Below, in pieces: positions 389 through 56,864 of a stretch of 64,000 nucleotides of DNA. Numbering within the stretch: the stretch's first letter is position 1; the number at the start of each line of letters is the position of its first letter. The translations under genes were made by a program, and so were the position numbers. The DNA is from a virus: IMG/VR virus record IMGVR_UViG_3300033156_000775, positions 1 through 64,000 of that record; one strand, given 5' to 3'. Below the pieces are notes generated by a model, which did no database searches, was not told the origin of the DNA, and saw nothing but the letters and a program-made list of their open reading frames with translations.

Positions 389-1400
389 AGAGTTTAAAAG
401 GAAATACTGGAGGAAGATAAGGAAAAAGCCTAATGTATCTGGATATTCAGGTATCCTACATCCCAGAATAAAGGATGGTAAGGAGATATCTGGAACTAAA
501 TGTATAAGGATCTATGTAGAGAGGAAAGTTCCATTATGCTCTTTATCGCCTAAAGAGAGGATTCCTAGACAGCTAGAGCTAAGTGGATCATCAATAGAGA
601 CAGATATAGTTGTCCTTCCAAAAATAAGGTTCATGGACGGTGTAGTCCGGACTACACCTGAGGATCATCAGAAACGTTACAGACCAGCTCCAGCTGGAGT
701 ATCATGTATCCATAAAGATGGGACAGCATGTACTCTCTCTTGGTTCTTTAAGAAGGACTGTAAGGTCTATGTTGCTCTCAATAACCATTGTGGGAGTTTA
801 GAAAATACTGCAAAGATTGAAGATGAGTGGCTACAGCCTAGTCCCGATGATGGAGGAGAGTTTCCAAGAGACATCATAGCTAAGCTAGCTTTCTATATCC
901 CTACAAAGTATAATGGATACAAATGTCCATACAGGAACTTTGCTTATAAGATCTATAAGGGGCTTTATTATTTGACACACTTCAAGCCATACGAAGCTAT
1001 AAATTATGTGGACATATCATTTGGAGAGCCTACTAACTTAGAGGACTTGTCATTCACAATCTATGGGATAGAAGGTAAAGTCGTAGGTAAAGGGGAACAC
1101 AGGAAGGGACTCAAGGTCTACAAGTCAGGTAGAACCACAGCTGTTACTGAAGGGACAATAGACGACCCCAGCTGGAACGGATATGTCTATGGTAGAAGGG
1201 GAACAGCATGGTATGAAGATTGCGTCCTAGTTAAGGGGAAATGTGCAGGTGGGGATAGTGGAAGTCCCATTGTCTCAATAGCTCATAATGGTTTGCTTTA
1301 TCATGGAGCTTTATTTGCTGGTAGCGATCAGGGAGTTTTCATCTACTGTAAGGTTGAGAATATAGAGAAGATAGCTGGTGTAGAGCTAGTAACAACTTAA
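372..1400 (+). CDS. Trypsin-like (PA clan) serine protease
   Basis: Catalytic motifs NNHC, VDIS and GGDSGS. GTG at 372 follows GGAGG (the ORF track starts at 330). Confidence 0.75.
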   Translation: MERILEEFKRKYWRKIRKKPNVSGYSGILHPRIKDGKEISGTKCIRIYVERKVPLCSLSPKERIPRQLELSGSSIETDIVVLPKIRFMDGVVRTTPEDHQKRYRPAPAGVSCIHKDGTACTLSWFFKKDCKVYVALNNHCGSLENTAKIEDEWLQPSPDDGGEFPRDIIAKLAFYIPTKYNGYKCPYRNFAYKIYKGLYYLTHFKPYEAINYVDISFGEPTNLEDLSFTIYGIEGKVVGKGEHRKGLKVYKSGRTTAVTEGTIDDPSWNGYVYGRRGTAWYEDCVLVKGKCAGGDSGSPIVSIAHNGLLYHGALFAGSDQGVFIYCKVENIEKIAGVELVTT

Positions 1401-1437
1401 ATATCTCTTAATTTAAAGAATTAGAGGAGGGAAATGT

Positions 1438-1650
1438 ATGTCTGAGGAAGAGGAAATAGTGGAGAAGACTAAACTGGACATGATAGTGGAGGCACTGTCC
1501 AAGGCTACAGCTCCAATAGTGGTGTTCTTCCTGTTATTCTGTATCTTAGCTGGTTTGCTATATAGAGGGGCATTGTCAGCTCAGGATTTTAAGGAGCTTG
1601 TACTAGCTGATGGAATAGTGTCCGCTATACTTAAGCTGGTTAAAGAGTGA
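1438..1650 (+). CDS. Small membrane protein (holin-like candidate)
   Basis: 70 aa with a hydrophobic segment; GGAGG upstream. Confidence 0.45.
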   Translation: MSEEEEIVEKTKLDMIVEALSKATAPIVVFFLLFCILAGLLYRGALSAQDFKELVLADGIVSAILKLVKE

Positions 1651-1655
1651 GATAA

Positions 1656-3041
1656 ATGAGGGTCATCAGGAGAAGGAGAGCTCCTCCTGTAGAGAAGGTC
1701 TCTATAGAGAGCCTAGCTGCTAGTCCTGAAGAAAGGACTCAAATGTGGTCTACCCTAGAAGAGAGAATAACCTCCACAGTAAGCAAGGAGCAGCTAGAGA
1801 AGCTCTACCACGTTGACGGTTTGATATTTGCTCAAGTGAATGACTACGTAATGTACATTGTTAGGCCAGGATTCTATTTCCTGTCTGACAATACGGACTT
1901 GGTAAGGGAATGCGAGAAGTGGGCTGAGGACGTTAACTTACTAGCCCTAATGGAGGAAGTTGTGAGAGACATATTTGTGACCGGGGCTGGCAATGCGTTC
2001 CTTGAGCTCGGATATACTGAGGATAGTAGAGACATTCTTAAGCTTAGGGTTATTAATCCTAAGACTGGAATAGGCTATATCAGGGATAAACGTACAAAAT
2101 CCGTTAAGCTAGATGAGAACTTTGAACCTCTAGGCTTCATACAGGAAAAGAACATGCTTGGACAGAAGGTGGAATGGTACAGGGACAGGATACTGGTGGA
2201 CGGTAAGAAGGTATGGAGCCCCAAGTACCCAGGGGACGATGGTAGAGACCGTATAGCACACTTCAAGCTATTCGGACTTGGAGAATCTATGCTTGGACAG
2301 AGTCCATTGGAGACAATATTCAAGCAGGCATTGATACGTCTTAACCTAGAAGACAATGTAGGGGAAGGTGGATTTAGATCTGGAGCTGTAATTGCCTATG
2401 TTGGGGAGTCAGGTAAGCCTCCAGTTAAGGATGCTGATGTTGAGAGCGTAGTTAACATCCTTAAGCGGATAACGGTAGACAGTATCTTTGGATTCAAGCA
2501 TAACGTACGTGTAGAGAGGTTTCCATCCCCAGACATAAAAGACAGAGACAGCCTGATAAGATACTTTGCTGATGTCCAGTCAGCTGGGATGGGTATCCCT
2601 CTAGCTAAGTACTTCACCAGTGGAGTGGGACAGAGACGTAGGGACCTTGAGCTCATGAATCTGGACTTTGAATATAGAGTTATAGCTCTACAGGATAGGT
2701 TAGCTGAGCAGATGAGGGAGAAGCTATTCTACAGAGTCCTGAAAGCCAGGGGAAGAGTGAAAAGGCTAAGTGAAGTTCCTAAGGTAGTGTTTAGGAGGAA
2801 GACTCCCATGATGCAGAGACAGCGTAGCTCGGACATCTCAAGGCTGTTCAGGAGGGACATACTAACATGGGACCCTGAGCTGGAGAAGCTCCTAAGAGAG
2901 GAGTTTGGGCTTCCAACATCATTTGTGGACAAGACACTTGGACTGTGGAGGAAGTACTGGAAGTCCAAGAAAAAGGAAAATGCTAGTCCAGAAGACATAG
3001 AGGACATTTTTAGAGAAGCACTGGAAGAGATGGGGGACTAA
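1656..3041 (+). CDS. Portal protein
   Basis: 461 aa with portal-like motifs (GNAFLEL, IAHFK..LGES.LGQSPLE, AGMGIP); viral context. Confidence 0.75.
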   Translation: MRVIRRRRAPPVEKVSIESLAASPEERTQMWSTLEERITSTVSKEQLEKLYHVDGLIFAQVNDYVMYIVRPGFYFLSDNTDLVRECEKWAEDVNLLALMEEVVRDIFVTGAGNAFLELGYTEDSRDILKLRVINPKTGIGYIRDKRTKSVKLDENFEPLGFIQEKNMLGQKVEWYRDRILVDGKKVWSPKYPGDDGRDRIAHFKLFGLGESMLGQSPLETIFKQALIRLNLEDNVGEGGFRSGAVIAYVGESGKPPVKDADVESVVNILKRITVDSIFGFKHNVRVERFPSPDIKDRDSLIRYFADVQSAGMGIPLAKYFTSGVGQRRRDLELMNLDFEYRVIALQDRLAEQMREKLFYRVLKARGRVKRLSEVPKVVFRRKTPMMQRQRSSDISRLFRRDILTWDPELEKLLREEFGLPTSFVDKTLGLWRKYWKSKKKENASPEDIEDIFREALEEMGD

Positions 3042-3248
3042 GCCTTAAAGAGGATAGAATGTGACAGATGTCACAGAAAGTTTAAAGAGTCCAAGCTATT
3101 TGACACTCTTGATGGAAGAAAGCTATGTGTAAGATGCTTTAGAAAAAGCAGTCCGGCTGTTAGTGTGTCGTTGAATAGGTCACTTAAAGTGTTTAATAGG
3201 AGGAATAAGAAATCAAATCTAAAGTCCAAGCATCTAAAGAGGAGCTAG
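3042..3248 (+). CDS. Small Zn-finger ORF with no AUG start
   Basis: Open frame ALKRIECDRC...LCVRC, in frame directly after the portal TAA. Confidence 0.4.
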   Translation, partial: ALKRIECDRCHRKFKESKLFDTLDGRKLCVRCFRKSSPAVSVSLNRSLKVFNRRNKKSNLKSKHLKRS

Positions 3249-4384: not shown

Positions 4385-4678
4385 ATGAAGCGGAATAGTC
4401 TATTAGAGAAGCTACTGAATGAGGAATATGTCAGGAGCCTAAGTGAACGGAGATATAAAGAGCTTATGTTCTGTAAGGAGATACTATCAGAGGATGAACT
4501 TAGACAGTACAGCTCAATAAGTGTGGCGTACTCAGTAGCTAGGAACAAATTGATAGAGGAGATACTGCCAAAAATAGATGAGGAGCTAGCCTTCATAGCT
4601 AAACATAAGCATTTCAACACTATACATGCCTATGAATACTACAGGGACAAGATACAGAGCGTCCTAGATGAGATGTAG
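4385..4678 (+). CDS. Hypothetical protein
   Basis: ORF with GGTGA RBS; stop codon lies inside a palindrome copy. Confidence 0.55.
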   Translation: MKRNSLLEKLLNEEYVRSLSERRYKELMFCKEILSEDELRQYSSISVAYSVARNKLIEEILPKIDEELAFIAKHKHFNTIHAYEYYRDKIQSVLDEM

Positions 4679-4723
4679 TCCGGACTACAAATGTTTTTCT
4701 AACTGACATTTGAGCTTCATTCC

Positions 4724-5950
4724 TTGGGAGCTCAAATGTCCAGTGATCGTAGTAACTTCCTATTCTTATGGCATAGTGTTAGTGCTCAAATAAGATCTGG
4801 CTATGGCGGATGTACTAGACATATAGTAGGAAGGCTAGCTAAGAAGGGATTTAGATTTGTAACTACACATTACTATGGTATAGACCCTGGTGGAGTGCTA
4901 GTGCTAAATGGAGTTCCAGCTCTACCTGCCAAGACAGGTAGCTTTGGAGAGCTGTCTGTAAGACACTACGTTAACACATTAAAACCGAACATGGTGTGGT
5001 TGCATACTGACCCATGGGCCTTCCCTTGGATGGTGAGTTTACCATGCTTGACTGGTAGCTATGGACCCTTAGATCATATTCTTTATCCAGAGAATCTTCA
5101 GCAACTCATGAGGCAATATAATTATAGAGTGGCCCCTGCTAAGTTTACAGTAGAGGAGTGGGCTAAGTATGACCCTCCAGTGTACTTCGACTGGATACCT
5201 CATGGTGTAGAGACCTCTGTCTACAAACCAATGGACAAGGCTGAAGCTAAGCGATTCTATAAGATAGACCCAGAGTCATTTGTAATGGGAATGGTTGGTG
5301 CTAATAGTGATAAAGAGCCGAGAAAGGGATGGACATTGATGTTCAAGGCTATCAGGATGTTCCTAGATAACAATCCTGATGTAAGAAACTTTAAATGTGT
5401 AGTGTACACTAACCCTAAAGATCAAAGAGGAATAGATATTGAGCTGTTCCTTAAGAAGTATAAGCTAACAGACATTTCCGTTACACAGTCTCCATTCCTG
5501 TTTGAAACAGGGATCAAGGATGAGGAGATGGCTAGACTGTACAATGCATTTGATGTACTGCTACATGCATCGTACCGTGAAGGATTTGGGCTTTGCATGT
5601 ATGAGGCAATGAGCTGTGGAGTCCCAGTAATAGCCCATGACTTCAGCTCAATGACCGAGGCTGTTGTAGAGGAGAATGGCACTAGACATGGATGGCTTGC
5701 TAAGACAGCTGTCTATGTTGACACCCCTATAGGTGCTACCAGTGCCATCCCAGACGTCTACTCCATAGAGAAATGTATAGAGAAAGCATACTTTAGGGGA
5801 AAGACTAGACTTAGATATGCTAGGAATGCTAGGAAGTTTGCATTGAAGTTTGACTGGGACAGGATAGTCAATGAGATGTGGACTCCATACCTGGACAGAA
5901 TAATAGAGGAGAACCGGCCTAAGGATCTTAGCAAACGTAAGCTTGTGTAG
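4724..5950 (+). CDS. Glycosyltransferase family 4 (GT-B)
   Basis: SGYG, IPHGV, RKG and EGFGL..YEAMSCGVPVI motifs. Confidence 0.9.
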   Translation: MGAQMSSDRSNFLFLWHSVSAQIRSGYGGCTRHIVGRLAKKGFRFVTTHYYGIDPGGVLVLNGVPALPAKTGSFGELSVRHYVNTLKPNMVWLHTDPWAFPWMVSLPCLTGSYGPLDHILYPENLQQLMRQYNYRVAPAKFTVEEWAKYDPPVYFDWIPHGVETSVYKPMDKAEAKRFYKIDPESFVMGMVGANSDKEPRKGWTLMFKAIRMFLDNNPDVRNFKCVVYTNPKDQRGIDIELFLKKYKLTDISVTQSPFLFETGIKDEEMARLYNAFDVLLHASYREGFGLCMYEAMSCGVPVIAHDFSSMTEAVVEENGTRHGWLAKTAVYVDTPIGATSAIPDVYSIEKCIEKAYFRGKTRLRYARNARKFALKFDWDRIVNEMWTPYLDRIIEENRPKDLSKRKLV

Positions 5951-5982
5951 TCCGGACTACACTTTAAGGTGTGTAATTAGAT

Positions 5983-9485: not shown

Positions 9486-9521
9486 CGTGTAGTCCGGACT
9501 ACACTTTGGGAGTAGAGGTAA

Positions 9522-10367: not shown

Positions 10368-11401
10368 TAAAGTTGATCTCTCTTGTGATTCCAGTTTATA
10401 ACGAGGATAGCTCTATTGGTGAAGTTATAGAGGACTTTATTAAATGTCCCCTAATATCAGAAATCATTGTAGTGGATGATGGATCTACCGATAGGACTCA
10501 GGAGGTACTGATGAAGTATCCTATAACCATAATTAGACATGAAAGGAACAGGGGATATCTGGAAGCTATAAAGTCCGGATGTAAGGTAGCTACTGGAGAC
10601 TACATTATGATTGTGGATGGAGATGGACAGTACAAGTGTAGTCCGGACTTCATAGCTATGAGAGGGGACTATTTACTTTCAGGAGCTAAGACTAACAGAG
10701 CTGACCCATTACCTAGAATATTTCTTTCTAGAATAATGAATCTGATAAGCAATTGTGGATACAAATTGTTTCCAAGAAGCCTAGTACCTATACTAATGGA
10801 AACTAGGACTCTAAGAAATATTCCACTAACTGAGTTCTGTATTAGAGCTTCTAGAATGGGCTTTGATATTAAAGAGGTAAGCATACCACACTACCCACGT
10901 AAGCATGGTAAGAGTAGAATATTCAGGAAATTAGCTAAGTCAGCCATTGAGTCCCTGGTTGGACTCCTAATATTATGGGCTAGGGAAGCTTATGACTTGA
11001 TATCTGGAGCTATAATTTCAAGAGCTAGAAATCTTCTAAATAGAAATTTCTCTCTAATTGACACAATCTATATTGGAGGACATAGACATGGAAAGTTTCC
11101 AGCTTCAGTTAACACTACATTCTTTGAAGAGGGCAAGTATGTTCATCCTCTCATACTAGATGGATATGTGGAAGTAGTAAATGCAAATCTTAGAGTGATT
11201 AGACCTCTAATAATTTATTGTAAGTATGGTAGAGGAAGATCTGTCCTTGTAGCATGTGCATACTTAATAAAATATAGAAATATTAGCTGGCTAGAAGCAT
11301 TTTATAAGGTAAAGCATAAACACTCAATAGCCTACTTGACTCCTGAGCAGTTTAAGGCTCTAAGGGATTACGAAAGGTATTTGGAGGGTAAATGGAAATG
11401 A
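10364..11401 (+). CDS. GT2 (dolichol-P glycosyltransferase-like) fused to a CX5R dual-specificity phosphatase
   Basis: VIPVYNE, VDDGSTD, DGDGQY and R.HGKS motifs; C-terminal IYCKYGRGRS..VACAYL. Confidence 0.8.
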   Translation: MIKLISLVIPVYNEDSSIGEVIEDFIKCPLISEIIVVDDGSTDRTQEVLMKYPITIIRHERNRGYLEAIKSGCKVATGDYIMIVDGDGQYKCSPDFIAMRGDYLLSGAKTNRADPLPRIFLSRIMNLISNCGYKLFPRSLVPILMETRTLRNIPLTEFCIRASRMGFDIKEVSIPHYPRKHGKSRIFRKLAKSAIESLVGLLILWAREAYDLISGAIISRARNLLNRNFSLIDTIYIGGHRHGKFPASVNTTFFEEGKYVHPLILDGYVEVVNANLRVIRPLIIYCKYGRGRSVLVACAYLIKYRNISWLEAFYKVKHKHSIAYLTPEQFKALRDYERYLEGKWK

Positions 11402-12366: not shown

Positions 12367-13349
12367 AGATTCTTATCACTGGTGGAAGTGGATTCATAGG
12401 GTCAGCTCTAGCTAGAGTGTTGTCCGGACTAAATTATGAAGTCTATACCGTGGACATCCTAGATCAGGCAGTAAACAATGTTTTCCATATAAAGTCGGAC
12501 TTTACTAAAGTTCCATTAGAAATCCTCAGGAAGATAGATGTGGTCTATCATTTAGCAGCTAAGCTTCCTATCCATAAGCTGTCATTCAGGGAGTATTTCC
12601 TAGAGAACACTTCTAAGACATTTGACTTGTTATGGAGATGTAAGGAAGCTAACATCAACAGATTCATCTATGTCTCATCATCTGCTGTGTATGGCTATCC
12701 AGAATGCCCATTAACCGAGGCCTCACCTAGAAAGGCAAGGGAGCCCTATGGCCATTCTAAGCTCCTAGCTGAGAAGGCCTGTGAATATTTCAGGGACACT
12801 TATGGTATGAACATCTCTATTGTCAGACCTAGAACCGTTATTGGCCATGGAAGACTTGGAATTCTTTACTTGCTGTTCTACTGGTTCAGCAACAACAAGA
12901 ATGTATACCTCTTAGGAGATGGGTCCAATAAATATCAGCTCCTGTCATTAACTGACTTGATAGATGCATTGGTTAGACTAGGCAGTTATGGTTCTTACCA
13001 GGATTTCAATCTAGGAGCTGAACAATATAGCTCTCTTAGAAATGACCTTTTTGAATTGATCTATAATGTCAATTCTAGATCTAGGATTGTATCTTTACCT
13101 TCCACTATTGGAAGAATATTTTGTAGGACTCTAGATAAATTGATTCCTCTAGCTCCATGGCATTATGAGTTTATAGATAAAGATTTCTATTTCGATATAA
13201 GTAAAGCTAAGACAGAGCTAGGATGGAAACCTAAATTCTCCAACTTGGAAATGCTGCTAGAGGCTTATAGATCATATTTAACGGGAGAATATGGGCTGTC
13301 TCCACATAAGTCTCCAGTCACACTGAAGCTTCTAAGATTGTTGCCATAA
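12363..13349 (+). CDS. NAD-dependent epimerase/dehydratase
   Basis: TGGSGFIG, SSSAVYG and YGHSK motifs. Confidence 0.9.
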   Translation: MKILITGGSGFIGSALARVLSGLNYEVYTVDILDQAVNNVFHIKSDFTKVPLEILRKIDVVYHLAAKLPIHKLSFREYFLENTSKTFDLLWRCKEANINRFIYVSSSAVYGYPECPLTEASPRKAREPYGHSKLLAEKACEYFRDTYGMNISIVRPRTVIGHGRLGILYLLFYWFSNNKNVYLLGDGSNKYQLLSLTDLIDALVRLGSYGSYQDFNLGAEQYSSLRNDLFELIYNVNSRSRIVSLPSTIGRIFCRTLDKLIPLAPWHYEFIDKDFYFDISKAKTELGWKPKFSNLEMLLEAYRSYLTGEYGLSPHKSPVTLKLLRLLP

Positions 13350-13520: not shown

Positions 13521-13538
13521 GTGTAGTCCGGACTACAC
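13521..13538. repeat. Perfect palindrome copy at the + to - strand switch
   Basis: GTGTAGTCCGGACTACAC between convergent genes. Confidence 0.95.
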
Positions 13539-15627: not shown

Positions 15628-17670
15628 CTAGATCTTCCTCTTAGCTTTAGCATAGTAGTCCTCTATGAGGATGTCAGCTATAGTCCCAAATGCATCTTCA
15701 GACTTCACTATCTTGGATATAACTTCATGTGCAGTTGGAGTCTTAGGGGCTTCCTGCTCTCCACTAGGTGGAGCTTGCTTTCCCTCTTCCTTCTCAGCTC
15801 CCTCCTTAGAGGGTTCCTGCTTCTCTGTTTTTATCTTCTCTGTGTCAGATTCCTTTGGCTTTTCCTTAGATGTGTCAGTTGATTGACCTTTGCCTTCCTC
15901 TTTAGATTGTTCAGAACCTGCTTCAGATTCTACATTCCCTTTTTCCTCCTTAGTATCACCTTCATTGGACAACTCAGTGTTGTCCGGACTACACTCTGAG
16001 TTCTCAGCTTCACTCTGCTTCTCTGGATATTTACCCTCTCCATACTTACCATACTTCTCTGAGTGTTCCTTGTTGAAGTGCTCTATCATCTCCTCCTTAG
16101 AGTCAAACTCCTCTCCACATACTGGACACTTCACCTTCTTTAGTTCCTTTTCCTTTATCTTCTTAGACAGCTTCTCCATTATCATGTCAGCTATAGCTTC
16201 TAGGTTCAGGTTAGCTACAAAGTCCCTTGCTTCCTTCTCAGTGTCAAACTGCTTAACTATCTTCCATAGCCCCTTCTCAGAGGCCTTCATAACAATGAAC
16301 TTACCAGTCTTCTTGTTCTTAACTATCCTGTAGTCAGCTAGCTTGGAGATTTCCTCTAAGTCGGACTCATCTATTTTCTCTTTAGCTAGCTTACCTCCAG
16401 TGCCTCTAGGTGGAAGCAGCTTGTATGCTAGGTCTCCTATGAGCTCCAGTAGCTTCTCAGCTTTCTCTTTACCAAAGTGGGCTATTAGTCTTTCCTTCTC
16501 TGTCCTGGGCCCTGTCCCCTCTGAATAGGCATAGTATGGATGATAGTAATAGTATGGGACATAATATCCAGGATAGTAATAGTAGTAGTAACCAGTCTTA
16601 GTTTTCTTTTTTCTAGCTCTGCCCTTCCTAACTAATTCCTCTAGCTCATCCTCAGAAAGGTCAGGTAGCTCCTCAGAAAGTCCATGTCCATAGTAGGGAT
16701 AATAGTATGGGTAGCCATAGTATGGATAGTAATAGTAATATCCCTTCCTACGCTTAACAGTCTTCTTAGCAGCAGGATACTTACCAGGTGGATAATATTC
16801 ATAGATAACTCTTTTTCTCTTTAGCACTTGAGCTAGGTCTGATATTGGTACAAACTCAAGCTCAACTTCCTCTTCCTGATCTTCCAAGTCCTCTTCAGGT
16901 AGAAGGGCTACCATTGGTTCAGAAAGCTCAAAGTACTCTTCCTTCTCTCCAGATCCTTCTTGAGGCTCATTAGCCTCTTCACTTTCAGACATACTTTCAA
17001 CCTCCTCTCTACCTTTATTTTCATTACTTTTATCCTTTTCTACAGGGATAATTGTGAAACAACATGCTACCTGAGGCTCAGTACCCAAGTTAGAGCTTAA
17101 GGCTTCTTTGGAAACTATAACACAGCTCTTGCAAGCAGGCATAGAAGTAAGAGAGATATTAATAGGCTCGTAATCTGTACCAATCTCCCTTCCGTTAATG
17201 TTGACTCTCTTAACCTGTAGCTTCATGCTGGTAGCTGGGAATGTACCGTCCTTAACCATCTCTATGGCTTTGGGATCAGTGATGTAAGCCTCATACTTAA
17301 TAGCTCCAAGCATATCGTCCCATTCAGAACTAGCAGTCTCCCCTACTTTTCTAGACTTAAACTCTTCTGTCTTTTCATGCTCAACTGTTATTGGGAGCTT
17401 CCTTAGCTTGTCCTTGTATCTTTCATACATCTTCTTTATTTCTGACTTTACATATGGAAGGCCATTCCAGACTCCCTCAGCTAGCATTATGCCTGCTATC
17501 TTTAGCTTTTTGCCCTCCATACCCAAATTAGTAATGGAGGACAATGTGCTTACAAAGTCTACACTTAGCTCTTCAACATTTTGTTCCTTAAGCTTCTCTT
17601 TAAGAGTGCTAAGCTCTTTTCTGAGCTGTTCATTCTCAGCTAGAGCCTCCTCAAGAATACTAGCACTCAT
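15628..17670 (-). CDS. Prohead protease/scaffold with Tyr-rich tract and C2H2 Zn finger
   Basis: EGVWNG..PITVEH..VG..SLTSMPAC (prohead protease-like), YYYYPYYGYPYYY tracts, CPVC..H..H, acidic linker; upstream of the MCP. Confidence 0.7.
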   Translation of the reverse strand: MSASILEEALAENEQLRKELSTLKEKLKEQNVEELSVDFVSTLSSITNLGMEGKKLKIAGIMLAEGVWNGLPYVKSEIKKMYERYKDKLRKLPITVEHEKTEEFKSRKVGETASSEWDDMLGAIKYEAYITDPKAIEMVKDGTFPATSMKLQVKRVNINGREIGTDYEPINISLTSMPACKSCVIVSKEALSSNLGTEPQVACCFTIIPVEKDKSNENKGREEVESMSESEEANEPQEGSGEKEEYFELSEPMVALLPEEDLEDQEEEVELEFVPISDLAQVLKRKRVIYEYYPPGKYPAAKKTVKRRKGYYYYYPYYGYPYYYPYYGHGLSEELPDLSEDELEELVRKGRARKKKTKTGYYYYYYPGYYVPYYYYHPYYAYSEGTGPRTEKERLIAHFGKEKAEKLLELIGDLAYKLLPPRGTGGKLAKEKIDESDLEEISKLADYRIVKNKKTGKFIVMKASEKGLWKIVKQFDTEKEARDFVANLNLEAIADMIMEKLSKKIKEKELKKVKCPVCGEEFDSKEEMIEHFNKEHSEKYGKYGEGKYPEKQSEAENSECSPDNTELSNEGDTKEEKGNVESEAGSEQSKEEGKGQSTDTSKEKPKESDTEKIKTEKQEPSKEGAEKEEGKQAPPSGEQEAPKTPTAHEVISKIVKSEDAFGTIADILIEDYYAKAKRKI

Positions 17671-17708: not shown

Positions 17709-17733
17709 TATTTAAATGTTGTCCGGACTACAC
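17709..17733 (-). promoter_or_regulatory. TATA box (TTTAAATA) for the protease/capsid operon, abutting a palindrome copy
   Basis: Minus strand reads GTGTAGTCCGGACAACATTTAAATA, about 40 nt upstream of ATG 17670. Confidence 0.5.
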
Positions 17734-33236: not shown

Positions 33237-33275
33237 TGTTTATTCCTCCTAGCTATATGTAGTCCGGACTACACT

Positions 33276-36571: not shown

Positions 36572-36681
36572 TTTTATGCACCTTCTAGTGTAGTCCGGAC
36601 TACACCTTGTAAAGAATGAACTTAGCCTCCTACTTGTAGAGGAGACTAGTTCAAGACTACTTATCCTTTAAACTAGGAGCC

Positions 36682-37743: not shown

Positions 37744-37783
37744 CGCATTCACTCTCCTACAGCTCAATATTCAAGGTAGAAGG

Positions 37784-37852
37784 ATTATATAAAGCTATAT
37801 CTGCACTACAGTGTAGTCCGGACTACACTTCTCAATGAATAAGCTTATTAAC
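37784..37852. promoter_or_regulatory. Divergent archaeal promoters flanking a palindrome copy
   Basis: TTTATATA on minus (about 37785-37792) toward MCP2, TTATTAA on plus (about 37845-37851) toward the tail tube; palindrome at 37811-37828 between them. Confidence 0.55.
37811..37828. repeat. Perfect palindrome copy at the - to + strand switch
   Basis: GTGTAGTCCGGACTACAC between divergent genes. Confidence 0.95.
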
Positions 37853-39495: not shown

Positions 39496-40810
39496 GATCC
39501 CTATTAAGATACAGCTCCAGCTTGAGGAGACTCCTAGTGACATAGAGGCTAGGCTAGCAGCTATAGACAAGGAGCTGGAGAAGAAGCCTGGAGCTCTCAA
39601 GCAAATGGGTACTGCAACCCGGACTACATCCAGCCTCTTAAAATCATATTCAATAAATGTTGAAGGAGCTATTGAAAGCCAAGCCAAGCTTGGAGATGTC
39701 CTTGCAGATTTCAGAACTAAACAGATTGAGAACATAGCCCTGATGAACAAGTATGCGAGTGGACAGAAGCTGACTAGAAGTGAAATGAAGAAGCTCAATA
39801 GAGTAGTAACAGAAATGGCTAGGGGCCATGTGGCACTTTCTAATATTAATAGGAGAATAGGCCAGGAACTCTTCTGGTTAGGATTAGGAAGCATGTTCAT
39901 TGTAATGTCATATGCTAGATGGAGACGATCATCCCTAACTATAGAGAGTGCCCAGCTTTCTCTACGCAGGGCAGTTATGAGTATGGAGGAAGCTCAGAGA
40001 AGGGCTAGTGAAACCATACGGATGTATGGAGCTAGGAGTAGGGAGGCTAGAGCTGCAATACTGGATGCTGAGGAAGCAGAGCTGTCATATAAGCTAGCTG
40101 TTGATCGGGTTAGAAGCAGCATTGAGCAGCAGAACTATGCTCTCTGGACGTTTATCCTGGGTGCTGTACCAACCGTGATTAGGGCAGTGTTCAGCCTCAC
40201 TAACCTGTATCTTGAGCACTATGCAGCTCAGATTCAAGCTGGAACTGGAATGACCTCACTGTATATAAAGTCCATGCTAGAGACTAAGGGATACTTGATT
40301 AAGATTCCAATTCTAAACCTTACAATCAAGTCCTATTGGGGCATGGTAGCGGCTATGGGGGCAGCTACACTTGGATTGACATTGGTTCTCTCAGCATTAT
40401 CTTACTTCCTAACTGAGATACTAATTGTGAATCCAGCTATGGAGAAAATGAAAAGCAATCTAGAAGGTATAGAGGACTCACTAGTTGGGCATTCCCTAGT
40501 GAACGCTTTAAGAGCTACTAGAGCTGAGACTTCAGAGCTACGTAGAAGCTTTGTAGATCTGGGGCAGGAGGCTTCTAGGCTTCCCTTTAAGACTGGTTCT
40601 CCTCTTGAGGTACGTACAACCTATGGATGGGCAGAGCTAGCTCCTATGGAAAGGCTTGAGCTCCCTAGAGCACAACCAAGTGTGTCTCAGGTGAACATCA
40701 ACATTCAGGGTCCATTCTACATTAGAGAGGAAGCTGACATTTCCAAGTTGGCAGCTAAGATAGGTAGGCTTCAAATGTCCAGGGTTATACGTATGAGGGG
40801 AAGGACATAG
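39488..40810 (+). CDS. Tape measure protein
   Basis: Helical and Ala/Leu-rich with hydrophobic segments; C-terminal VNINIQGP..IREEADI.KLA. Confidence 0.7.
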   Translation: MSEIPIKIQLQLEETPSDIEARLAAIDKELEKKPGALKQMGTATRTTSSLLKSYSINVEGAIESQAKLGDVLADFRTKQIENIALMNKYASGQKLTRSEMKKLNRVVTEMARGHVALSNINRRIGQELFWLGLGSMFIVMSYARWRRSSLTIESAQLSLRRAVMSMEEAQRRASETIRMYGARSREARAAILDAEEAELSYKLAVDRVRSSIEQQNYALWTFILGAVPTVIRAVFSLTNLYLEHYAAQIQAGTGMTSLYIKSMLETKGYLIKIPILNLTIKSYWGMVAAMGAATLGLTLVLSALSYFLTEILIVNPAMEKMKSNLEGIEDSLVGHSLVNALRATRAETSELRRSFVDLGQEASRLPFKTGSPLEVRTTYGWAELAPMERLELPRAQPSVSQVNINIQGPFYIREEADISKLAAKIGRLQMSRVIRMRGRT

Positions 40811-40850
40811 AATGTAGTCCGGACTACACGCAGTGTAGAGGTGAATTGAG

Positions 40851-43520
40851 ATGGCGTATGAGGGAGCTATGGAAGTTAGGTCTCTAGTAGAAGTGTTTAG
40901 AGGAGTAGCCTACAATAACGATGGTATGAGACCCTACGTAGCTGATACTGTACCGTATGGATGGAAGAATCTCACTTCAGGAGCAAACTGGTCTAGTGAT
41001 GGGGACATAGGAAGCGTCTCCTTTACTGCTCTATCTACATTTTCAGCTGTAGCTACAATAACTTCTACATTCTCTACTGATGTTTACTCATATTTGGTAG
41101 CTAGAGGAAGAGGGATAAATGGAGGATCATGGGCTGTAGGCTTCAAGGACCTAGCTGATAACATTTATTGGTCTCCATGGTATGGCAACAGCACTTTTGA
41201 AACTAAAGTGTATTCTCTCCCTTCTGGACACTCAATATCTGAGTATTATCTTAGAGGGACAGGTACATTCCAGGTTGACTATGTAGTCCTGTCATCTATA
41301 AGCCCACTTACAATCACACCAATCAACATGACAGTCAACAGGAACATTACTGGAGAGCTGACTGTTACAAGCTTCCATAAGGTCTTCACTGGAATTGTTG
41401 ATAGAGTAGAGAAGAACATCAGAGGCCATGAACCTAGAAGAATCACATTGAATGCTAGTGACTATGGACAGTACCTTCAACGCAGGAAGGTCAAGAGAGG
41501 ACGAATTTACGATGACTACTTTGACAATGTTGTTGCCCAGATAGTTGACTCACTTGTAGAAAATGGTGAGCTAACCATAGCCAATATTGACACTACAAAC
41601 CTACATTACTCTGTTAGGAAGGAGATCCAGAATGACACTTCAGGCTTTGATCTTCTGTTAAACCTAGCTGAGGAGCAGGATGCTGACTTCTATGTTGACT
41701 TTGGTAAGGACTTACACTACTTTAAACGTGGGACTAGAGAGAGTGGACTGAATATTGCTGCTACTGAAACAACTGAGTTTCCATTTGAAGAGGACATTAC
41801 TTCAATAATAAATGTACAGGAAGTGATAGGGGCTGATGGAGATAGCATTGGAAGTGACACTGAATGGACTGAGAGTTTAAGCAACTGGACTGGGAGTGGA
41901 AGCTTATCACTAGATTCTAATGTATATGATACTGACTCTGAGGGAGCATACTCTATAAAAAATAGAAACGCTACTGGAGGCACAGTCTGGTTTGCTAGGG
42001 ATATGGGTACACTTGACTTGAGCTTAGGAGGAGTGCTATGCTATTCTCTACAGCTAAGAGCTGTGAAAAGCTATACTGGGGGCAGGGCTGAGAAGCTGAT
42101 TACAAGGAACTATTTCATTGGGCCTAATGGAACTTTCTGGGTGGACATTGAAGCTTCAGGTGGCATTGAGTCCAGTCGTTCTCTAAGTAGATATGACGCT
42201 TCACCTTATCCTGAATATACAGAGGGCTATGCATTCTACTATTATCCTATGAGCAAGTTTGAAGTTCCCTTCAACTATAAAGCGAACTACAAGCTAGAGT
42301 CTTCGTTATCTGGTGAGCTAAGCTGGGATCAGATCAATACTATCAAGGTTGAAATTCTCAATCCAATTGTTACTGGATCGGAAGCCATAGCCTGGATAGA
42401 CAATATGCGTATAGAGCAAGTCCACTACTCTGGGACTATAGAAGATGCTGTGTCAATAAGCAAGTATGGTAGGAGAGAGGGGATACCTAGAGGACCGGAC
42501 TACTCACTGGACTCTAAGGAGAAATGTGAGAATATGGCTTCAATAATGGTTGCAGTGTACAAGGACCCTGTGAGAGTAATATCTGATGTAGAGACCATAC
42601 GTAACTTCACCTATGAGCCTGGACACGAATACACCATATCTGTAGAAGAGATGAGCAGTATACCTGTGATTCTAAGGAATATTAGACATGAAGTTGAAGG
42701 GCTAGACCTACATACATACCTGTCATTTTCAGAAAGGTGGATACCTAAGCCAGAGAAGCTGTTTACAACCTTGAAGAACCAGCTTGAGGCTTATGGATGG
42801 AACATAGAGGCATGGAAGAAAGCTAAGCTCCCATCAGCTGTGATACCTACAAGATCTGAGCAGATAGAGTTCTGGGAGTCAGCTATTGAATTTCCAAGGT
42901 ATGTGTTGTTTGACCAGAGATTTGTTACAGCTGTTACCCCCGACCAGAGCCAATATGATATTTCATACTCGTCTGGAGGATCAGGGTCAGTGACATTTGG
43001 ACCTACGTTTCACTTGTTCACTGGGGATGGAGCATTAAAGACAGTTAAGATTATTCCTAAAGCTTCCTCTGGGAAGTTGAAATATGACATTAACTCAGGG
43101 TTCAGAGCTAGAATAATTATTAACGCTGATACAATAGGACCTGATGTTGGAGCTGAGTTCCAAATATCCATTGGAAGTATGAATGTGTCATCTTACTCTT
43201 CTAACTATTATGGGTTCAGATTGAAGGAAGATGGCACTATAAACATTGAGGTAGGGAGCTCAACTGAGAAGTGGTACAATTCAGTAGCTATGGGTACATA
43301 TGCTGTTAACGATACAATAGACCTGTGGGCCATCTACGACAAGGAAAGTTACAAGATGTACTTCTTCAAGGATGGAATTATGAAGTTCATGTTTAGTGAA
43401 GTCACATTGGATACTAACATGTTACCCTTCTATTTATATGCTGTTACAGGAAGCAGTGCCACTGGAGGAATGAGCATAGCTGTTGAGGGACTAAACATCA
43501 TCCAGGGGTGGAAAGCATGA
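40851..43520 (+). CDS. Tail tip/hub protein with lectin-like domains
   Basis: VFTGIVDRVE..ITL.A.DYG..L, DFYVD..KDLH and SISKYGRRE motifs. Confidence 0.65.
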   Translation: MAYEGAMEVRSLVEVFRGVAYNNDGMRPYVADTVPYGWKNLTSGANWSSDGDIGSVSFTALSTFSAVATITSTFSTDVYSYLVARGRGINGGSWAVGFKDLADNIYWSPWYGNSTFETKVYSLPSGHSISEYYLRGTGTFQVDYVVLSSISPLTITPINMTVNRNITGELTVTSFHKVFTGIVDRVEKNIRGHEPRRITLNASDYGQYLQRRKVKRGRIYDDYFDNVVAQIVDSLVENGELTIANIDTTNLHYSVRKEIQNDTSGFDLLLNLAEEQDADFYVDFGKDLHYFKRGTRESGLNIAATETTEFPFEEDITSIINVQEVIGADGDSIGSDTEWTESLSNWTGSGSLSLDSNVYDTDSEGAYSIKNRNATGGTVWFARDMGTLDLSLGGVLCYSLQLRAVKSYTGGRAEKLITRNYFIGPNGTFWVDIEASGGIESSRSLSRYDASPYPEYTEGYAFYYYPMSKFEVPFNYKANYKLESSLSGELSWDQINTIKVEILNPIVTGSEAIAWIDNMRIEQVHYSGTIEDAVSISKYGRREGIPRGPDYSLDSKEKCENMASIMVAVYKDPVRVISDVETIRNFTYEPGHEYTISVEEMSSIPVILRNIRHEVEGLDLHTYLSFSERWIPKPEKLFTTLKNQLEAYGWNIEAWKKAKLPSAVIPTRSEQIEFWESAIEFPRYVLFDQRFVTAVTPDQSQYDISYSSGGSGSVTFGPTFHLFTGDGALKTVKIIPKASSGKLKYDINSGFRARIIINADTIGPDVGAEFQISIGSMNVSSYSSNYYGFRLKEDGTINIEVGSSTEKWYNSVAMGTYAVNDTIDLWAIYDKESYKMYFFKDGIMKFMFSEVTLDTNMLPFYLYAVTGSSATGGMSIAVEGLNIIQGWKA

Positions 43521-43726
43521 AAATAACAATTGAAAGGGTTGATCCTGAGGAAATAATTAGGGAGATAGTAGGGAGTATCCCATATCATGTCAGGAAGTCA
43601 GGTAATAGGATAGAGATCAAAATTGAAGATGCTGACGCTAGAACACTAAGTGTTGTCCGGACTACACTTAGAGACAGGATTAAGAGGAAGCTCCCTAGAG
43701 GATGGAAAGTGAGGATTGATGGGTAA
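43517..43726 (+). CDS. Hypothetical protein
   Basis: ATG overlaps the upstream stop; contains an in-frame palindrome copy. Confidence 0.5.
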   Translation: MKITIERVDPEEIIREIVGSIPYHVRKSGNRIEIKIEDADARTLSVVRTTLRDRIKRKLPRGWKVRIDG

Positions 43727-48539: not shown

Positions 48540-50840
48540 AAGATGTAGTCCGGACTATATATGAAGTCCCGGGTAGTGTTAAGTTCCAGCTGTTCTTATG
48601 GTACAAGGACCCAGTGCTCTTCTTCAGAGAAGTCTTCAATGTAGAGCCATACAGCTACCAGAAGAGAATCCTCAAGGAGTTTGTGAACTTAAAACGGATG
48701 ATGATCTCAGCTGCCTCAGACACTGGTAAGACACTTCTGCTAAGTGCACTAGCGTTATGGTCAGCTCTGGTAAAGTCCTTCATAGAGGACATCAAGTATC
48801 AAGTTGTGATTCTAAGTGGCTCCAGAGAGCAAGCTGAACGGCTATATCAATACACCAGGGAAGCGTTGATGTCTAGTGAGGTGCTCTACCCACTTGTGGT
48901 TAAGGAAAGAGGTAAGCCTAAGATCCTCAAGAGCTACGTTGAGTTCATCAATGGATCATGGATAAAGACATTTGCCAGGGCACTGACATCAATCCAGGGT
49001 GTACACGCACAGATGGTGATTGTTGATGAGGCAGCTCTTAAGGAGCTGGACTTCTTCATCAAGGATACTCTGAGAATATCCAGAATATGACCCTAAGAAA
49101 TGTCCAGATGGATGGAGGAGATATCACTGGAGTGCCGATGAATGTCCTAGGACCAAGAAAAAGCTAGAAGAGGCTAAGACACTGGATGAGGAGACATTCT
49201 CAATATACTATGAGGGGAAGCCATACAGCAAGGACCCAAACAAGGTTGTACCTATACATCTAATCAGAAGACAGTCTGAAGGTATCAAAAGATTCAAAGT
49301 AGATCCAGCTAACAGAGCTGGACTAATCATCTTCGGGGTCGACTACGGATCATGCTTTTCAGAAGACACTCAAGTCCTGACTAATCATGGATGGAAATAT
49401 TTCTATGAACTAAACCCATCCGACCTAGTTCTAACTTTGAATACTAAAACATTAAAAGCAGAATATCAGAAACCAAAGAAGATTCATTCTAGATTCTATT
49501 CTGGAGAAATGATATGGATTCATTCTAAGAATCTTGACATACTAGTGACTCCACATCATCCTATTCCCTTTCTTGATAGAAACAAGAAGAGACTCCATTG
49601 GCACTTGGCTTTCGAACGGACTACACATGATTATCTAATTAGGAAAGCTCGGTTTTCAGGATATAAACCAGATTTTTGGGAGATTCCTGAATATTATAAT
49701 GAATACTGGTGTGGACATTACCATTCAAGTCATAGAGAATATTTCAAGCCAAAGCTAAAAGTTCCAATTGAAGATTTCCTTAGGTTACTAGGCTGGTATC
49801 TATCAGAAGGTAATATTTTCAAAGAAGGATTTTACATCTCCCAGTCTAAGCTGAAACACCCAAAATATTGTGCTGAAATCAGTGCCTTACTCTCTCGACT
49901 TGGGCTAAATGTTGATTATAATTTCAACAACACTACTAAAGGCGGATACTTCAGAGTTTTCTCGATGCAGTGGAGACAATATTTTGCTCAGTTTGGAGAA
50001 AGTGAAGAACGATTCATCCCAGAAGACATTAAAAATCTAGATGGTTCTCTCCTAGAAATCCTTCTTGAGACCTTGATGAAGGGAGATGGTGCCAAAACTG
50101 GTTTTTACTACTGGACGGATTCAAAACAATTAGCAGATGACCTGCAGGAGATAGCTTTAAAGACTGGTAGATACATCCCTTGGATAAGCTCCAGGATCCG
50201 TAATGGGAAAGTAGAATACTCTGTACATATGAAGCAGACAGACTCTAGCCCTAACAAGAAACATTACGATGAAGTCAAATATTCTGGTAAGATTTGGTAC
50301 ATAGAAACTGAAAATCAAACATTATGTGTACGAAGAAACACTAAACCAGTATTTCTACATAATACAGCTGGGACGATGCTAGCTATTTTGCATAAAGTCG
50401 GTAAAGAATACCATCTCATAGATTTGCTAGAATGGAAAATGCAGAAGTACGATGACGTACAGGACTGGATAGAGTCTGTAACTGAGCTCTATAAACCGGA
50501 CTACATATTTGTAGATGCACTGCCTAAGGGAGAGTCTGAACGCACAGTTGACAGGCTTGGACAGAAGGGGTACACTGTGACTCCAGTGTTCTTCTCTCAA
50601 GAGAAGTCTAGGTACCAGACTAGGATGAGAAGTCTATTTAGCCTTGGACAAATATGGATTCCAGAATCGTTTGTAGACCTTCTAGAAGAGTTAAGAGCGT
50701 ATGAGTGGACTACCAAGAGAGGAGATGATAGAGTAGTAGCTTTGATGCTAGCCCTGATTGACCCTGAACCTTCAGAATCACAGTCGGTATTTGGGATAGC
50801 TGCAAGACCAATCTCCAGACCACTCTCCCATCGACTGTGA
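48536..50840 (+). CDS. terL: Terminase large subunit (frame break near 49075; intein in the nuclease domain)
   Basis: PYSYQ, Walker A AASDTGKT and Walker B VIVDEAA; a second frame gives W..YHW...CP, FGVDYG, IFVDA and GDDRVVAL. Confidence 0.85.
49353..50363 (+). mobile_element. LAGLIDADG intein in the terminase nuclease active-site strand
   Basis: GVDYGS|CFSEDT..VTPHH..LGWYLSEG..LMKGDG..VFLHN|T; 337 aa. Confidence 0.9.
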
Positions 50841-50990
50841 TGCCCGGACTACACTTCAGCATCTCCACCCCCTTCCTTTACGATACACCAAACATTCCAA
50901 CCCCAATAGAAACTAAACACCATTCATATAATAAGAAGAGAAGGGAGAGAATTCTATTCGTTTAAAAAAAAAGATATGGAGATCCTAAGG

Positions 50991-53791: not shown

Positions 53792-53814
53792 ATCCTCTAA
53801 AGTTGTGATGGTTT

Positions 53815-54384: not shown

Positions 54385-54438
54385 GATAAGCTTATTTTGA
54401 TTCTAAGCCTGTTTCTAACTCTTTAGGAGGTGACTCTT

Positions 54439-54579: not shown

Positions 54580-54600
54580 TCTCTTAGAGGCTTTGTTATT

Positions 54601-54816: not shown

Positions 54817-55732
54817 AAATAATTTCTCTATTCCTCCCTATGTAGTCCGGACAACACTTTAAGGAGAAACTAATTTGTCCTCTAGAAAAGATTTATTCCT
54901 CTTGTGTAGAAGGTTAGGAACAGAAAGATGCAAGTACAGAAATTCTTATTGCTGTCTTGTTGGGTATAAGCCAAAGGGAAAGTGTCCAGCTGAAAATGAT
55001 GTGTAGTCCGGACTACACTCTCATGGGTCTAGTCTATCTATATCCTAGATAGACAGATAAACCATGAAAGGAGAAATAAAGATGAAAATTGAACCATACG
55101 TGCTTGATGAGATTGAGAACAGAATAATGCAAGTGATTGAGTCCTTAACTGAGAAGCTTGATGCTGATGATGCTGATATTACTGAGCTTCGTATTTTAAT
55201 AGAACACATCCATGTCTTGAAAAGACATCTTCAGGCTTAACGGGAAGGATGTAGGTTGTCAATTGAGATAAGTGAGGAGGACATATGTAGATTCCTAAAG
55301 CTGAAGATGGGAAGAAGACCGTCCCCTTCAGAAGTCAAGTCCTTCATCAGCTATCTGGAAATAGACATGCCAGAATGGCTGAATGACAACTTCAGAAGCT
55401 GGGAAAAGTGTAGTCCGGACAACACTTGTTAGGGATGAAAATTATGAGTAAAGCTAAGAGAGTAAAGGTTTATCTTGAAATAACTGATAAGAGCTACACA
55501 GCTCTCTACACAGCTTCAGACATAGCTGACATCCTAGAAAAAGCACTATATGAAAATCTGATTGAATACTACATTATTAGAGTAGTGGAAATTTAAAGTT
55601 GTTAGTCTCTTGACAAGAGCTGATGTTTATCTTGTCAATTATAGATCATTTCTTCATAGGATATTTCCTTTCATGCTTCTTCTGGATTGGATACTTGTTA
55701 TATAAATCTAGAAAGAAGAAATAAGCCCTAGA

Positions 55733-55846
55733 CCACAGCTGATATGTAGCTAAGCTGGAAAATGCCAATCTAGAGAGTCTATTACAAAATTGATTGTCTA
55801 CAGGACAACATTCCAGCTTAGCATTCTCCCTGCATGTCAGCTGTGG
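55733..55846 (+). ncRNA. Putative structured RNA or 5' leader
   Basis: 17-bp stem with two G-U pairs plus a nested 12-bp stem; TTATATAA box at 55698-55705. Confidence 0.45.
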
Positions 55847-55878
55847 AGGGAGACTTAAAATAAAGGAGGAAAATAAGA

Positions 55879-56451
55879 GTGAGAATTCTAGAATTGGATG
55901 ACAACACCATATACATCGATGACCCCAGCTTCACATGTGAGCTGGACGATGGCAAGAAGGTCTATCTAGGTCTAGTGTGTGAAGCTTTTGACCTAAGGGA
56001 AATAGACGATAGACATGATGACGATCCCTACCCGGTGGTAGTGGAAACTCAAGTAACAGTGGCCCCTAGATCCTTAGACAGCAGCTACCTCAAAGTAGCT
56101 AATGAAGGAGAAGGTCTTGATCTTAACAATGATGGGATTAAAGTCTATGTGTCCTACCGTTATTCTGGAGGAGTCCCTGTAAACATGGAGTCTATCAAGG
56201 GATCTGTAAAGTCTAGTGTAGACTCTGAGGTTAGGACAATCAATCATAGGCTGTATGGAGAAATAAAGACTAGACATTTTAGAACTGTAGAGGATGCCTT
56301 ATCCTATGCTAGGAAAGTCTATGCCCATAACTGTAAAGCTCTATTTGGGCTGATAGGGTTCTACTTAGACAGGACACTGAACTTAGCTGGTACAACTGGA
56401 TGGGACATCATACAGCTCCAAGCCTTGAACAAGGACTACAAAGTTTTCTAG
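55879..56451 (+). CDS. Hypothetical protein
   Basis: GGAGG RBS with GTG start. Confidence 0.6.
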   Translation: MRILELDDNTIYIDDPSFTCELDDGKKVYLGLVCEAFDLREIDDRHDDDPYPVVVETQVTVAPRSLDSSYLKVANEGEGLDLNNDGIKVYVSYRYSGGVPVNMESIKGSVKSSVDSEVRTINHRLYGEIKTRHFRTVEDALSYARKVYAHNCKALFGLIGFYLDRTLNLAGTTGWDIIQLQALNKDYKVF

Positions 56452-56657
56452 GATTGTGAAGCAATGTCCATAAAGTGGAAAGTGTATGATTCACTAGGAA
56501 ACCTAGTAGGCTACTTCTATAAGGAAAATGATAAAGTAGCTCTTGAGGACTTATCTGGAAAAGTCCAACATGTAAGGAAAGATCTGACATTAAAGCAAGC
56601 TGTAAGGATTCTTCTTAGCGAAGAATAGATCTTAAGCTAAATAGAGGAACGAAAAGA

Positions 56658-56864
56658 ATGAAGCAGCTAACATTCTATGACTTTGAAGGGTTTAGAGAGC
56701 TATGTCACTTCTTTGATGAAGTGCATGAGGAGCTAGCTGACATGTATGAGGCATTGAAGAAACCTAGAGCATATATCAAGGTTGAGCTGACAGGATACAC
56801 TGGAGATAAAAGAGATGTTCTGGAGATCAAGATCCCTAATAGTGTAGTCCGGACTACACTCTAG
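56658..56864 (+). CDS. Hypothetical protein
   Basis: ORF ends in an in-frame palindrome copy (VVRTTL*). Confidence 0.5.
   Translation: MKQLTFYDFEGFRELCHFFDEVHEELADMYEALKKPRAYIKVELTGYTGDKRDVLEIKIPNSVVRTTL

Follow-up and report, generated by a model that had tools for sequence, protein, structure and literature searches.

A palindromic DNA word iterated between and within the genes of a tailed, probably archaeal virus

Why should one and the same 16-bp palindrome recur every few kilobases along a virus genome, mostly in the narrow gaps between genes and in some places in the middle of them? The question is posed by the IMG/VR record IMGVR_UViG_3300033156_000775, a single virus genome of 107,029 bp with direct terminal repeats that is rated complete. 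Its first 64,000 nucleotides (positions 1 to 64,000) are the stretch under analysis and are referred to here as the window; positions beyond 64,000 are those of the genome. The virus is tailed, and the window encodes a capsid protein of the HK97 type and a two-part large terminase. The gene set has an archaeal flavour (a family B DNA polymerase, a RadA/Rad51 protein with a helix-hairpin-helix domain, an ERCC4 nuclease, and regulators of the HTH_45 and TrmB types), the closest solved relatives of the ATP-dependent ligases are archaeal, and one peptidase homologue carries the label Bathyarchaeota. The replication and repair genes and this homologue make an archaeal host probable. A preliminary description of the window had noticed the palindrome as the peptides VVRTT and CSPDY, written in frame into proteins, and had proposed that selection or a biased conversion process acts on the DNA with enough force to reshape the proteins.

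The word is a perfect palindrome with a 16-bp core, TGTAGTCCGGACTACA, that frequently extends to 18–22 bp. The genome holds 29 exact copies, 38 copies at no more than one mismatch and 43 at no more than two. Counted by class, there are 29, 9, 5 and 5 copies with zero, one, two and three mismatches, against expectations of 0, 0.001, 0.03 and 0.4; the excess is limited to these classes, and counts at four and five mismatches are close to expectation. The peptides imply a 14-mer, of which the window contains 15 exact copies and 26 at up to two mismatches, against 0.1 expected, and shuffled sequence yields about zero copies. The over-representation of the palindrome is real and lies far above chance. 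Copies occur at a density of one per 2.5–3.7 kb or so, and their spacing is more even than that of the same number of sites placed at random gene ends, a null that respects gene boundaries (coefficient of variation 0.66 versus 1.01, P=0.0016).

Most copies sit at the edges of genes. Seventeen of the 29 exact copies fall between genes or across a stop codon, six are found in the final 40 nt of a gene, and four or five are well inside genes (641, 18966, 68533, 80235 and 26002); the exact copy at 103204 is probably intergenic if the next gene begins at a downstream TTG, which has the better ribosome-binding site. Non-coding DNA and the last 45 nt of genes, together 13.9% of the genome, accommodate 21 of the 29 (the coding fraction is 93% by our own gene calls). 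The typical layout is a stop codon, 0–17 nt, the palindrome, 2–25 nt containing a ribosome-binding site, and a start codon. Read in its third frame, the word contains TAG, which is the real stop codon of six genes (at 4674, 5946, 55002, 59903, 61837 and 83061). The 13 in-frame window copies listed in the preliminary description do lie wholly within open reading frames (ORFs), with five of them exact and four in C-terminal tails or putative ORFs of at most 70 residues (27953, 43651, 55409 and 56843). The remaining 13 copies of the window, among them 10 of its 15 exact copies, lie between genes or run across a stop codon, and the in-gene copies outside the exact set are mostly variants with one or two mismatches. 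The earlier emphasis on coding sequence thus holds for the existence of the in-frame copies and not for the main placement: the word is mainly a gene-boundary element, and coding copies are secondary.

Placement at gene ends invites a reading as an intrinsic terminator, which was rejected as no T run follows the copies. Inspection by eye of the 29 oriented flanks revealed no consistent TATA-like box at a fixed distance that would speak for a promoter or operator. A conventional terminator-like hairpin with a T-rich tail is present 3′ of the capsid gene (36605–36660); it is separate from the palindrome, and its structure is kept in relatives including the family-level relative G001.

The copies within genes reveal how the word is acquired. 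VVRTT and CSPDY are the peptides of its two stop-free frames, used genome-wide by 14 and 7 in-gene copies, respectively; in-gene copies are limited to these two because the third frame reads the stop TAG, and the copy in the epimerase gene has TAG changed to TTG, as the preliminary description had it. The suspected rarity of the codons involved was borne out by counting: CGG accounts for 66 of 1876 arginine codons (3.5%) and CCG for 50 of 1262 proline codons (4.0%), and copies of the motif contribute 12 of these 66 CGG codons (18%) and 7 of the 50 CCG codons (14%).

Alignment to homologues shows substitution in place and not insertion. Solved homologues of the DNA ligase (copy 77820), of the ligase domain of a polyprotein (28782) and of the epimerase (12418) have other residues opposite the motif peptide, and no gap is needed to align them. 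In the protein encoded at 68297–69112 the motif peptide is invariant in four homologues of 74–90% identity. A more distant homologue, 52% identical and encoded by a relative that lacks the motif, likewise aligns without gaps; it has PVLRTRY in place of the PVVRTTH of this virus, and the codons are GTT CTT AGG ACG AGA in the former and GTA GTC CGG ACT ACA here; motif-free homologues having the same peptides was the finding expected if the word had not shaped the protein, and this homologue differs. The ancestral peptide was thus close already, and the word was completed by two amino-acid changes together with synonymous changes, including the switch from AGG to the rare CGG. Overall, the coding copies arose by substitution in place at positions that were tolerant or pre-adapted. 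The copy at 641 occupies the one hypervariable, length-variable loop of its peptidase family, a loop that varies in all homologues; the same peptide is found there in one 54%-identical homologue and half of it in one 68%-identical homologue. At the protein level, the homologues P0002, P0007 and P0086–P0089 carry the same peptide or half of it. The part of the 2008-residue protein around copy 18966 yielded no homologue.

Since four coding copies align gap-free, an origin of the coding copies by insertion of a mobile palindromic element, such as repetitive extragenic palindromes (REPs) with their REP-associated tyrosine transposase (RAYT), miniature inverted-repeat transposable elements or inserts like the Rickettsia palindromic elements, was rejected; a fifth copy lies in the length-variable loop. 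No RAYT-type transposase turned up among the roughly 85 proteins scanned against Pfam or PHROGs, although no search was aimed at transposases. Two gene labels of the preliminary description, 'PE fragment' (25646–26119) and 'scaffold' (15628–17670), found no support in Pfam. Its central claim stands as far as a force on the DNA is concerned: in-gene copies exist because this force acts on the nucleotide word and not on the proteins. Both of the forces it offered, selection and biased conversion, are compatible with these data.

Sites are shared with close relatives. The exact word was absent from a scan of IMG/VR, and a degenerate version of it recovered three short close relatives along with chance matches; a pattern scan of metagenomes is biased by its pattern, and conservation of sites was judged on orthologous sites defined by blast, among the matches listed. 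The short contigs L020–L022, L052, L066, L083, L084 and L098 (75–90% nucleotide identity) hold sites at the same places. Drift usually affects positions 6, 7, 10 and 11, while the outer five bases of the arms and the central CG are kept, and some sites are restricted to one lineage. Imperfect copies retain one good half-site, which may face along or against transcription. The position of copy 37812 is kept in L020–L022 with changes at the inner positions 6 and 7, L084 keeps a two-mismatch copy at 43651, and a four-mismatch version is found in L022 at the place of copy 33258. In L098, about nine of the 16 bases at 28782 differ, against 77% identity in the flanks, and both the C-terminal tail of the polyprotein and its palindrome at 27953 are missing. 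A 2.1-kb metagenome contig (L059) with otherwise no similarity to the genome carries three exact 16-mers in 440 bp, a cluster that resembles the one among tiny ORFs at 54841–55424 of the window.

Five family-level relatives, G001–G005, are complete or near-complete genomes of 107–128 kb, with 67% capsid identity (G001) and 39–56% peptidase identity to this virus. Its word is enriched in none of them. An iterated palindrome of their own is strong in three of the five (two words), weak in one and reduced to weak dyads in one. G002 and G003 have the word GATAGTWACTATC (15 and 20 exact copies, 27 and 32 within one mismatch), G004 has TATATC-N5-GATATA (24 copies), G005 the weaker CATGGTTAACCATG (7–13 copies), and G001 only weak dyads (about six copies). 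These dialects have no common centre. Like the word of this virus, they lie in genes and at gene ends alike, and the recurring peptides that they create align in place to orthologues. When G002 is compared with G003, 18 sites out of 32 match at every one of the 13 nt, against about 5% expected at 80% flank identity, and a few sites are absent outright; on this comparison, the pattern indicates purifying selection plus turnover. Positional orthology of sites between dialects is mostly absent, and G002 has its own, different palindrome within three codons of the position orthologous to 15978. The words of this virus and of G002/G003 have the half-site TAGT/ACTA in common, with a spacer of four bases in the former and a single base in the latter, which hints at a common origin of the two dialects with altered geometry. 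Two unrelated IMG/VR contigs found via the peptidase (L199 and L207) also have palindromes of their own, TGGCA-N5-TGCCA and TACACGTGTA, each present six times in 21 kb.

The explanation that we favour, with slightly better than even confidence, is that the palindrome acts in cis as a DNA word, which selection maintains and creates time and again for a sequence-specific and most likely dimeric reader that is particular to the lineage. The different palindromes in relatives make a lineage-specific reading factor probable. The reader would be a DNA-binding protein and, more speculatively, it could be the ParB/Noc-like protein of the virus itself, loading at sites along the whole genome. The virus would need many copies, fairly evenly distributed over the genome. 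The cheapest sites would be the few bases between the stop codon of one gene and the ribosome-binding site of the next, which is why most copies would end up there, and the TAG of the word would double as the stop codon of six genes. Other copies would be built within genes by point substitutions in tolerant loops, in C-terminal tails or in ancestral peptides that nearly matched, at the price of a few amino-acid changes and of rare CGG and CCG codons.

The candidate reader is encoded at 95678–96550, outside the window. It is a protein of 290 residues with Pfam matches to ParB_N and a helix-turn-helix (HTH) domain and with a GGRRY arginine box; among solved structures, Spo0J (5e-12) and Noc match it best. 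Orthologues are found in G001–G004, and the gene is present in all four genomes with strong palindromes; a search of IMG/VR for further ParB relatives found none. The presumed recognition helix differs by dialect and is identical in G002 and G003. It is possible, and we put it forward tentatively, that the lineages of this family of 107–128-kb, probably archaeal, tailed viruses write different palindromic addresses every few kilobases for a ParB/Noc-type CTP clamp or for another fast-evolving reader. If true, this would be a viral system for genome-wide self-recognition or genome organisation, whose specificity diverges by lineage and which is strong enough to edit the proteins of the virus that carries it.

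Several observations weigh against this picture. The identical helix in G002 and G003 says little because the two are close relatives overall. G001 combines a ParB orthologue with nothing stronger than weak dyads, and no clear ParB accompanies the weak palindrome of G005, so that the link between ParB and word is contradicted in two of six genomes. Two winged-helix proteins are rival candidates for the reader: the HTH_45 gene at 82760–83065, whose stop codon is a copy of the palindrome and which is absent from G001–G005 (the orthologue in L083 has a copy directly upstream), and a TrmB-like gene at 88896–89285, which starts 18 nt downstream of a copy. Homogenisation by conversion could account just as well for the strong excess of perfect copies over imperfect ones. 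Finally, the tight position of most copies in short spacers between stop codon and ribosome-binding site would suit an RNA element as well, and the bases next to the core are asymmetric in the form G..Y (23 G upstream, 16 C and 11 T downstream), which would permit G–U pairs in the sense strand.

An RNA element would be a hairpin in polycistronic transcripts that serves as a processing site, a 3′-end stabiliser or a translational spacer and is bound by a sequence-specific RNA-binding protein or nuclease. Besides the spacer position, it draws on the fold of the 22-nt extended form (−9.2 kcal/mol, z=−3.9), on the −1/+1 flanking bases, which show nine G/T pairs versus one A/C pair once the copies are oriented by transcription, and on the many RNA-related genes of the virus, an RNA ligase among them. 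We nevertheless consider it rather unlikely, and argue for a symmetric reader of double-stranded DNA over a simple RNA hairpin. The 16-nt core folds only weakly (−4.0 kcal/mol); one-sided variants recur at unlinked places, and a common one, an A4-to-T form seen five times, abolishes the hairpin (−0.1 versus −4.0 kcal/mol). Mismatches in the arms are never compensated, and the central CCGG, which would form the loop, is invariant and the best-conserved part of the word. Copies deep in genes are hard to place in such a scheme, as is the conserved copy at 37812 in a divergent intergenic region, which is probably untranscribed or in a 5′-leader, and the half-sites kept in relatives have no fixed orientation to transcription. 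Rfam and tRNA scans of the window were empty.

The palindrome could also be a word that propagates itself without any function for the virus, driven by biased gene conversion, short-patch repair or recombination between copies; biased conversion or short-patch repair is said to have been proposed earlier for the cyanobacterial palindrome HIP1. This seems improbable to us. The numbers of perfect and imperfect copies (29 versus 9 versus 5), the identical variants at unlinked places and the less perfect copies at the same places in near relatives would all suit conversion, and the virus encodes RadA and an ERCC4 nuclease. Coding copies, however, bear no insertion signature or target duplication, sites are over-dispersed and not clustered, and sites of the sister dialect are conserved far above their flanks. 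Breakpoints of homology to relatives abut palindromes in five cases, including 80250, 83053, 88890 and 30713, but this association is not significant after allowing for gene boundaries, and a reading of the palindromes as recombination junctions was rejected on the same ground. Blocks that are replaced or absent in close relatives (74161–79368, 80250–80872, 83053–83915 and 88890–89312) start 7–104 nt from a palindrome, which is suggestive of recombination junctions, although again without significance when gene boundaries are taken into account. The different words of several relatives fit a reader better than a repair bias.

Yet more doubtful is a self-mark for modification or restriction, in which a viral N6/N4 DNA methyltransferase, or else an enzyme of the host, would act on the central TCCGGA or CCGG, with the flanks being secondary. 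The genome, at 40.9% G+C, is depleted in CpG (observed/expected 0.25) and contains neither GCGC nor CGCG, and the invariance of CCGG would be expected of an enzyme site; CCGG outside the motif, however, occurs at its expected frequency (31 versus 32.6), TCCGGA is scarce outside the full word (45 occurrences versus 39 of the 8-mer core), an enzyme site of 4–6 bp would have no need of the ten further conserved positions, and the dialects of the relatives lack a shared centre. Two N6/N4 DNA methyltransferase genes are encoded, one at 86161–86940 and one at 75662–76039, the latter a fragment with the C-terminal half of the domain only. The CpG depletion is extreme and common to the whole family (observed/expected 0.10–0.31 in this genome and G001–G005).

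That the word was copied from the host, as a DNA uptake sequence or a signature of the HIP1 type, is hardly credible: the likeness drawn in the preliminary description lies in short exact words inside coding sequence, whereas 185,579 species-representative genomes (596 Gb) contain the exact 16-mer as 16 single chance occurrences, never iterated in any one genome, so that the word is not host-type, and equally CpG-poor family-level relatives carry other words or none.

Table 1. Copies and half-sites of the palindrome in the window. Positions are those of the window; (+) and (-) give the strand of the gene where noted.
Copy	Position	Location
exact	641..656	inside S1-like peptidase gene 372-1400 (+), VVRTT frame, hypervariable indel-rich loop
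exact	4674..4689	TAG is the stop of ORF 4385-4678
exact	5946..5961	TAG is the stop of glycosyltransferase gene 4736-5950
exact	9488..9503	intergenic, 2 nt past the stop of 8760-9485
1 mismatch	10637..10652	inside GT2 gene 10364-11401, CSPDY-type frame, directly after the DxD motif
2 mismatches	12418..12433	inside epimerase gene 12363-13349, stop frame, TAG to TTG
exact	13522..13537	convergent intergenic gap, 13391-13519 (+) / 13549-13914 (-)
1 mismatch (A4-to-T)	15978..15993	inside 680-residue gene 15628-17670 (-), CSPDY-type frame
1 mismatch	17717..17732	intergenic, 2 nt downstream of the stop of 17735-18043 (-)
exact	18966..18981	deep in 2008-residue gene 18048-24074 (-), VVRTT frame
2 mismatches	19218..19233	in 2008-residue gene 18048-24074 (-), VVRTT-type frame
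exact	26002..26017	ORF 25646-26119 (-), codons 34-39, CSPDY frame
exact	27953..27968	last 11 codons of intein-bearing polyprotein 27921-33005 (-)
2 mismatches	28782..28797	ATP-ligase domain of 27921-33005 (-), VVRTT-type frame
exact	33258..33273	intergenic, 2 nt downstream of the stop of 33276-34184 (-)
exact	36589..36604	between major capsid gene 36682-37752 (-) and next gene, past the separate terminator-like hairpin with T-rich tail
exact	37812..37827	divergent intergenic region, upstream of capsid gene
half-site	39613..39628	one perfect 10-nt half, 3 mismatches overall
exact	40813..40828	intergenic, 2 nt past the stop of 39488-40810
half-site	42495..42503	9-nt half only
1 mismatch (A4-to-T)	43651..43666	small ORF 43517-43726
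1 mismatch	48544..48559	codons 3-8, N-terminal part of large terminase (48536-49090)
half-site	50490..50505	inside terminase nuclease part
half-site	50838..50853	at the stop of 49437-50840
1 mismatch	54841..54856	intergenic, amid a cluster of tiny ORFs
exact	55002..55017	TAG is the stop of small ORF 54875-55006
1 mismatch	55409..55424	tail of small ORF 55256-55432
exact	56843..56858	tail of small ORF 56658-56864
2 mismatches	59903..59918	TAG is the stop of ORF 59380-59907
exact	61837..61852	TAG is the stop of RNA ligase gene 60606-61841

The half-sites that had been described at about 39619, 42495 and 50496 are present, and a further one was found at 50844 (Table 1). Several features of the surrounding genome may be recorded beside them. 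Nucleotide searches of deposited phages and plasmids with the window returned zero matches. The tetranucleotides CTAG and AGCT are plentiful in the genome, and the stop codon TAG is about as frequent as TAA. The large terminase is divided into an ATPase part (48536–49090) and a nuclease part (49437–50840), and the roughly 350 bp between them could represent an intron, the remnant of an intein or a true split. Inteins are indicated in the genes at 27921–33005 and 34889–36571 by LAGLIDADG and intein-splicing matches; close relatives lack about 1–1.2 kb exactly at 36408|35362 and 32598|31367, which fits presence and absence of inteins. At the end of the window (63634–64000, continuing to 64389) a protein of 251 residues is encoded that has primase-polymerase-like motifs and a weak match to an archaeal non-homologous end-joining polymerase (E=0.16). 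It is present in G002–G005, which have iterated palindromes, and absent from G001, which has weak dyads only.

Palindromes iterated throughout a viral genome have been described before, in the mycobacteriophages discussed below. The family-wide set of different words is the most interesting and testable aspect of the present case: a clade with several words allows readers to be matched to words by co-variation. The origin of copies in place, overriding codon preference and some amino acids, provides a measure of how strong the constraint is. The list of candidate readers is short, and one entry on it, the ParB/Noc-like protein, has known relatives that bind palindromes of just this kind; should a viral ParB clamp load along a whole virus genome, the ParB family would gain a new role.

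Among cellular systems, HIP1, the highly iterated palindrome of cyanobacteria, is an 8-bp word of cellular genomes that occurs up to once per gene and has no preference for gene ends. It shares with the word described here that an exact palindrome is kept by selection and written through coding sequence; here the palindrome is 16 bp long, viral, present once per 2.5–3.7 kb, and 21 of 29 exact copies are at gene ends. DNA uptake sequences and uptake signal sequences are non-palindromic 9–12-mers in the genomes of competent bacteria that are read by an uptake receptor. Dominance of exact copies, use of tolerant positions, preferred frames and dialects in related lineages are common to them and to the viral word, which differs in being a perfect palindrome of 16–22 bp that is not iterated in the species genomes searched.

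The closest mechanistic models, by analogy, are the pairs Noc–NBS and KorB–OB. Together with ParB–parS, these are systems in which perfect palindromes of 13–16 bp are read by CTP-dependent clamps of the ParB family that carry an HTH. Sites of parS cluster near origins; Noc has about 70 dispersed sites and KorB has 12 on a 60-kb plasmid, located within as well as between genes and functional in either orientation. A perfect palindrome of matching size and a ParB-family protein with arginine box and HTH are both found in the present virus. We know of no viral ParB with genome-wide sites.

Cluster A mycobacteriophages have stoperators, short sites that number in the dozens, are spread over the phage genome and are bound by one phage protein (PMC4351075). 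Dispersed sites are a feature shared with the present virus; stoperators are asymmetric and oriented with transcription, whereas the sites described here are symmetric. Corndog and its relatives, the Cluster O mycobacteriophages, carry a 17-bp dyad-symmetric repeat in 34 copies, with about 40% of them between ORFs and the others near gene starts or within genes, and with no tie to promoters (PMC4351075). That repeat consists of invariant 7-bp arms with a 3-bp spacer and is predicted to bind a dimeric protein, and a gene with a ParB-like domain is present in these phages (PMC4351075). As here, more than 30 dyad-symmetric copies are spread across the genome of a tailed virus, between and within genes. 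The Cluster O paper reports no use of the repeat as stop codons, no origin in place within conserved proteins and no differing words in sister lineages (PMC4351075). The hosts of Cluster O are bacterial, the word is a different one, and the window has no nucleotide match to deposited phages, which makes the Cluster O repeat an analogue of the viral palindrome and not a member of the same family of elements; it is the closest analogue that has been published.

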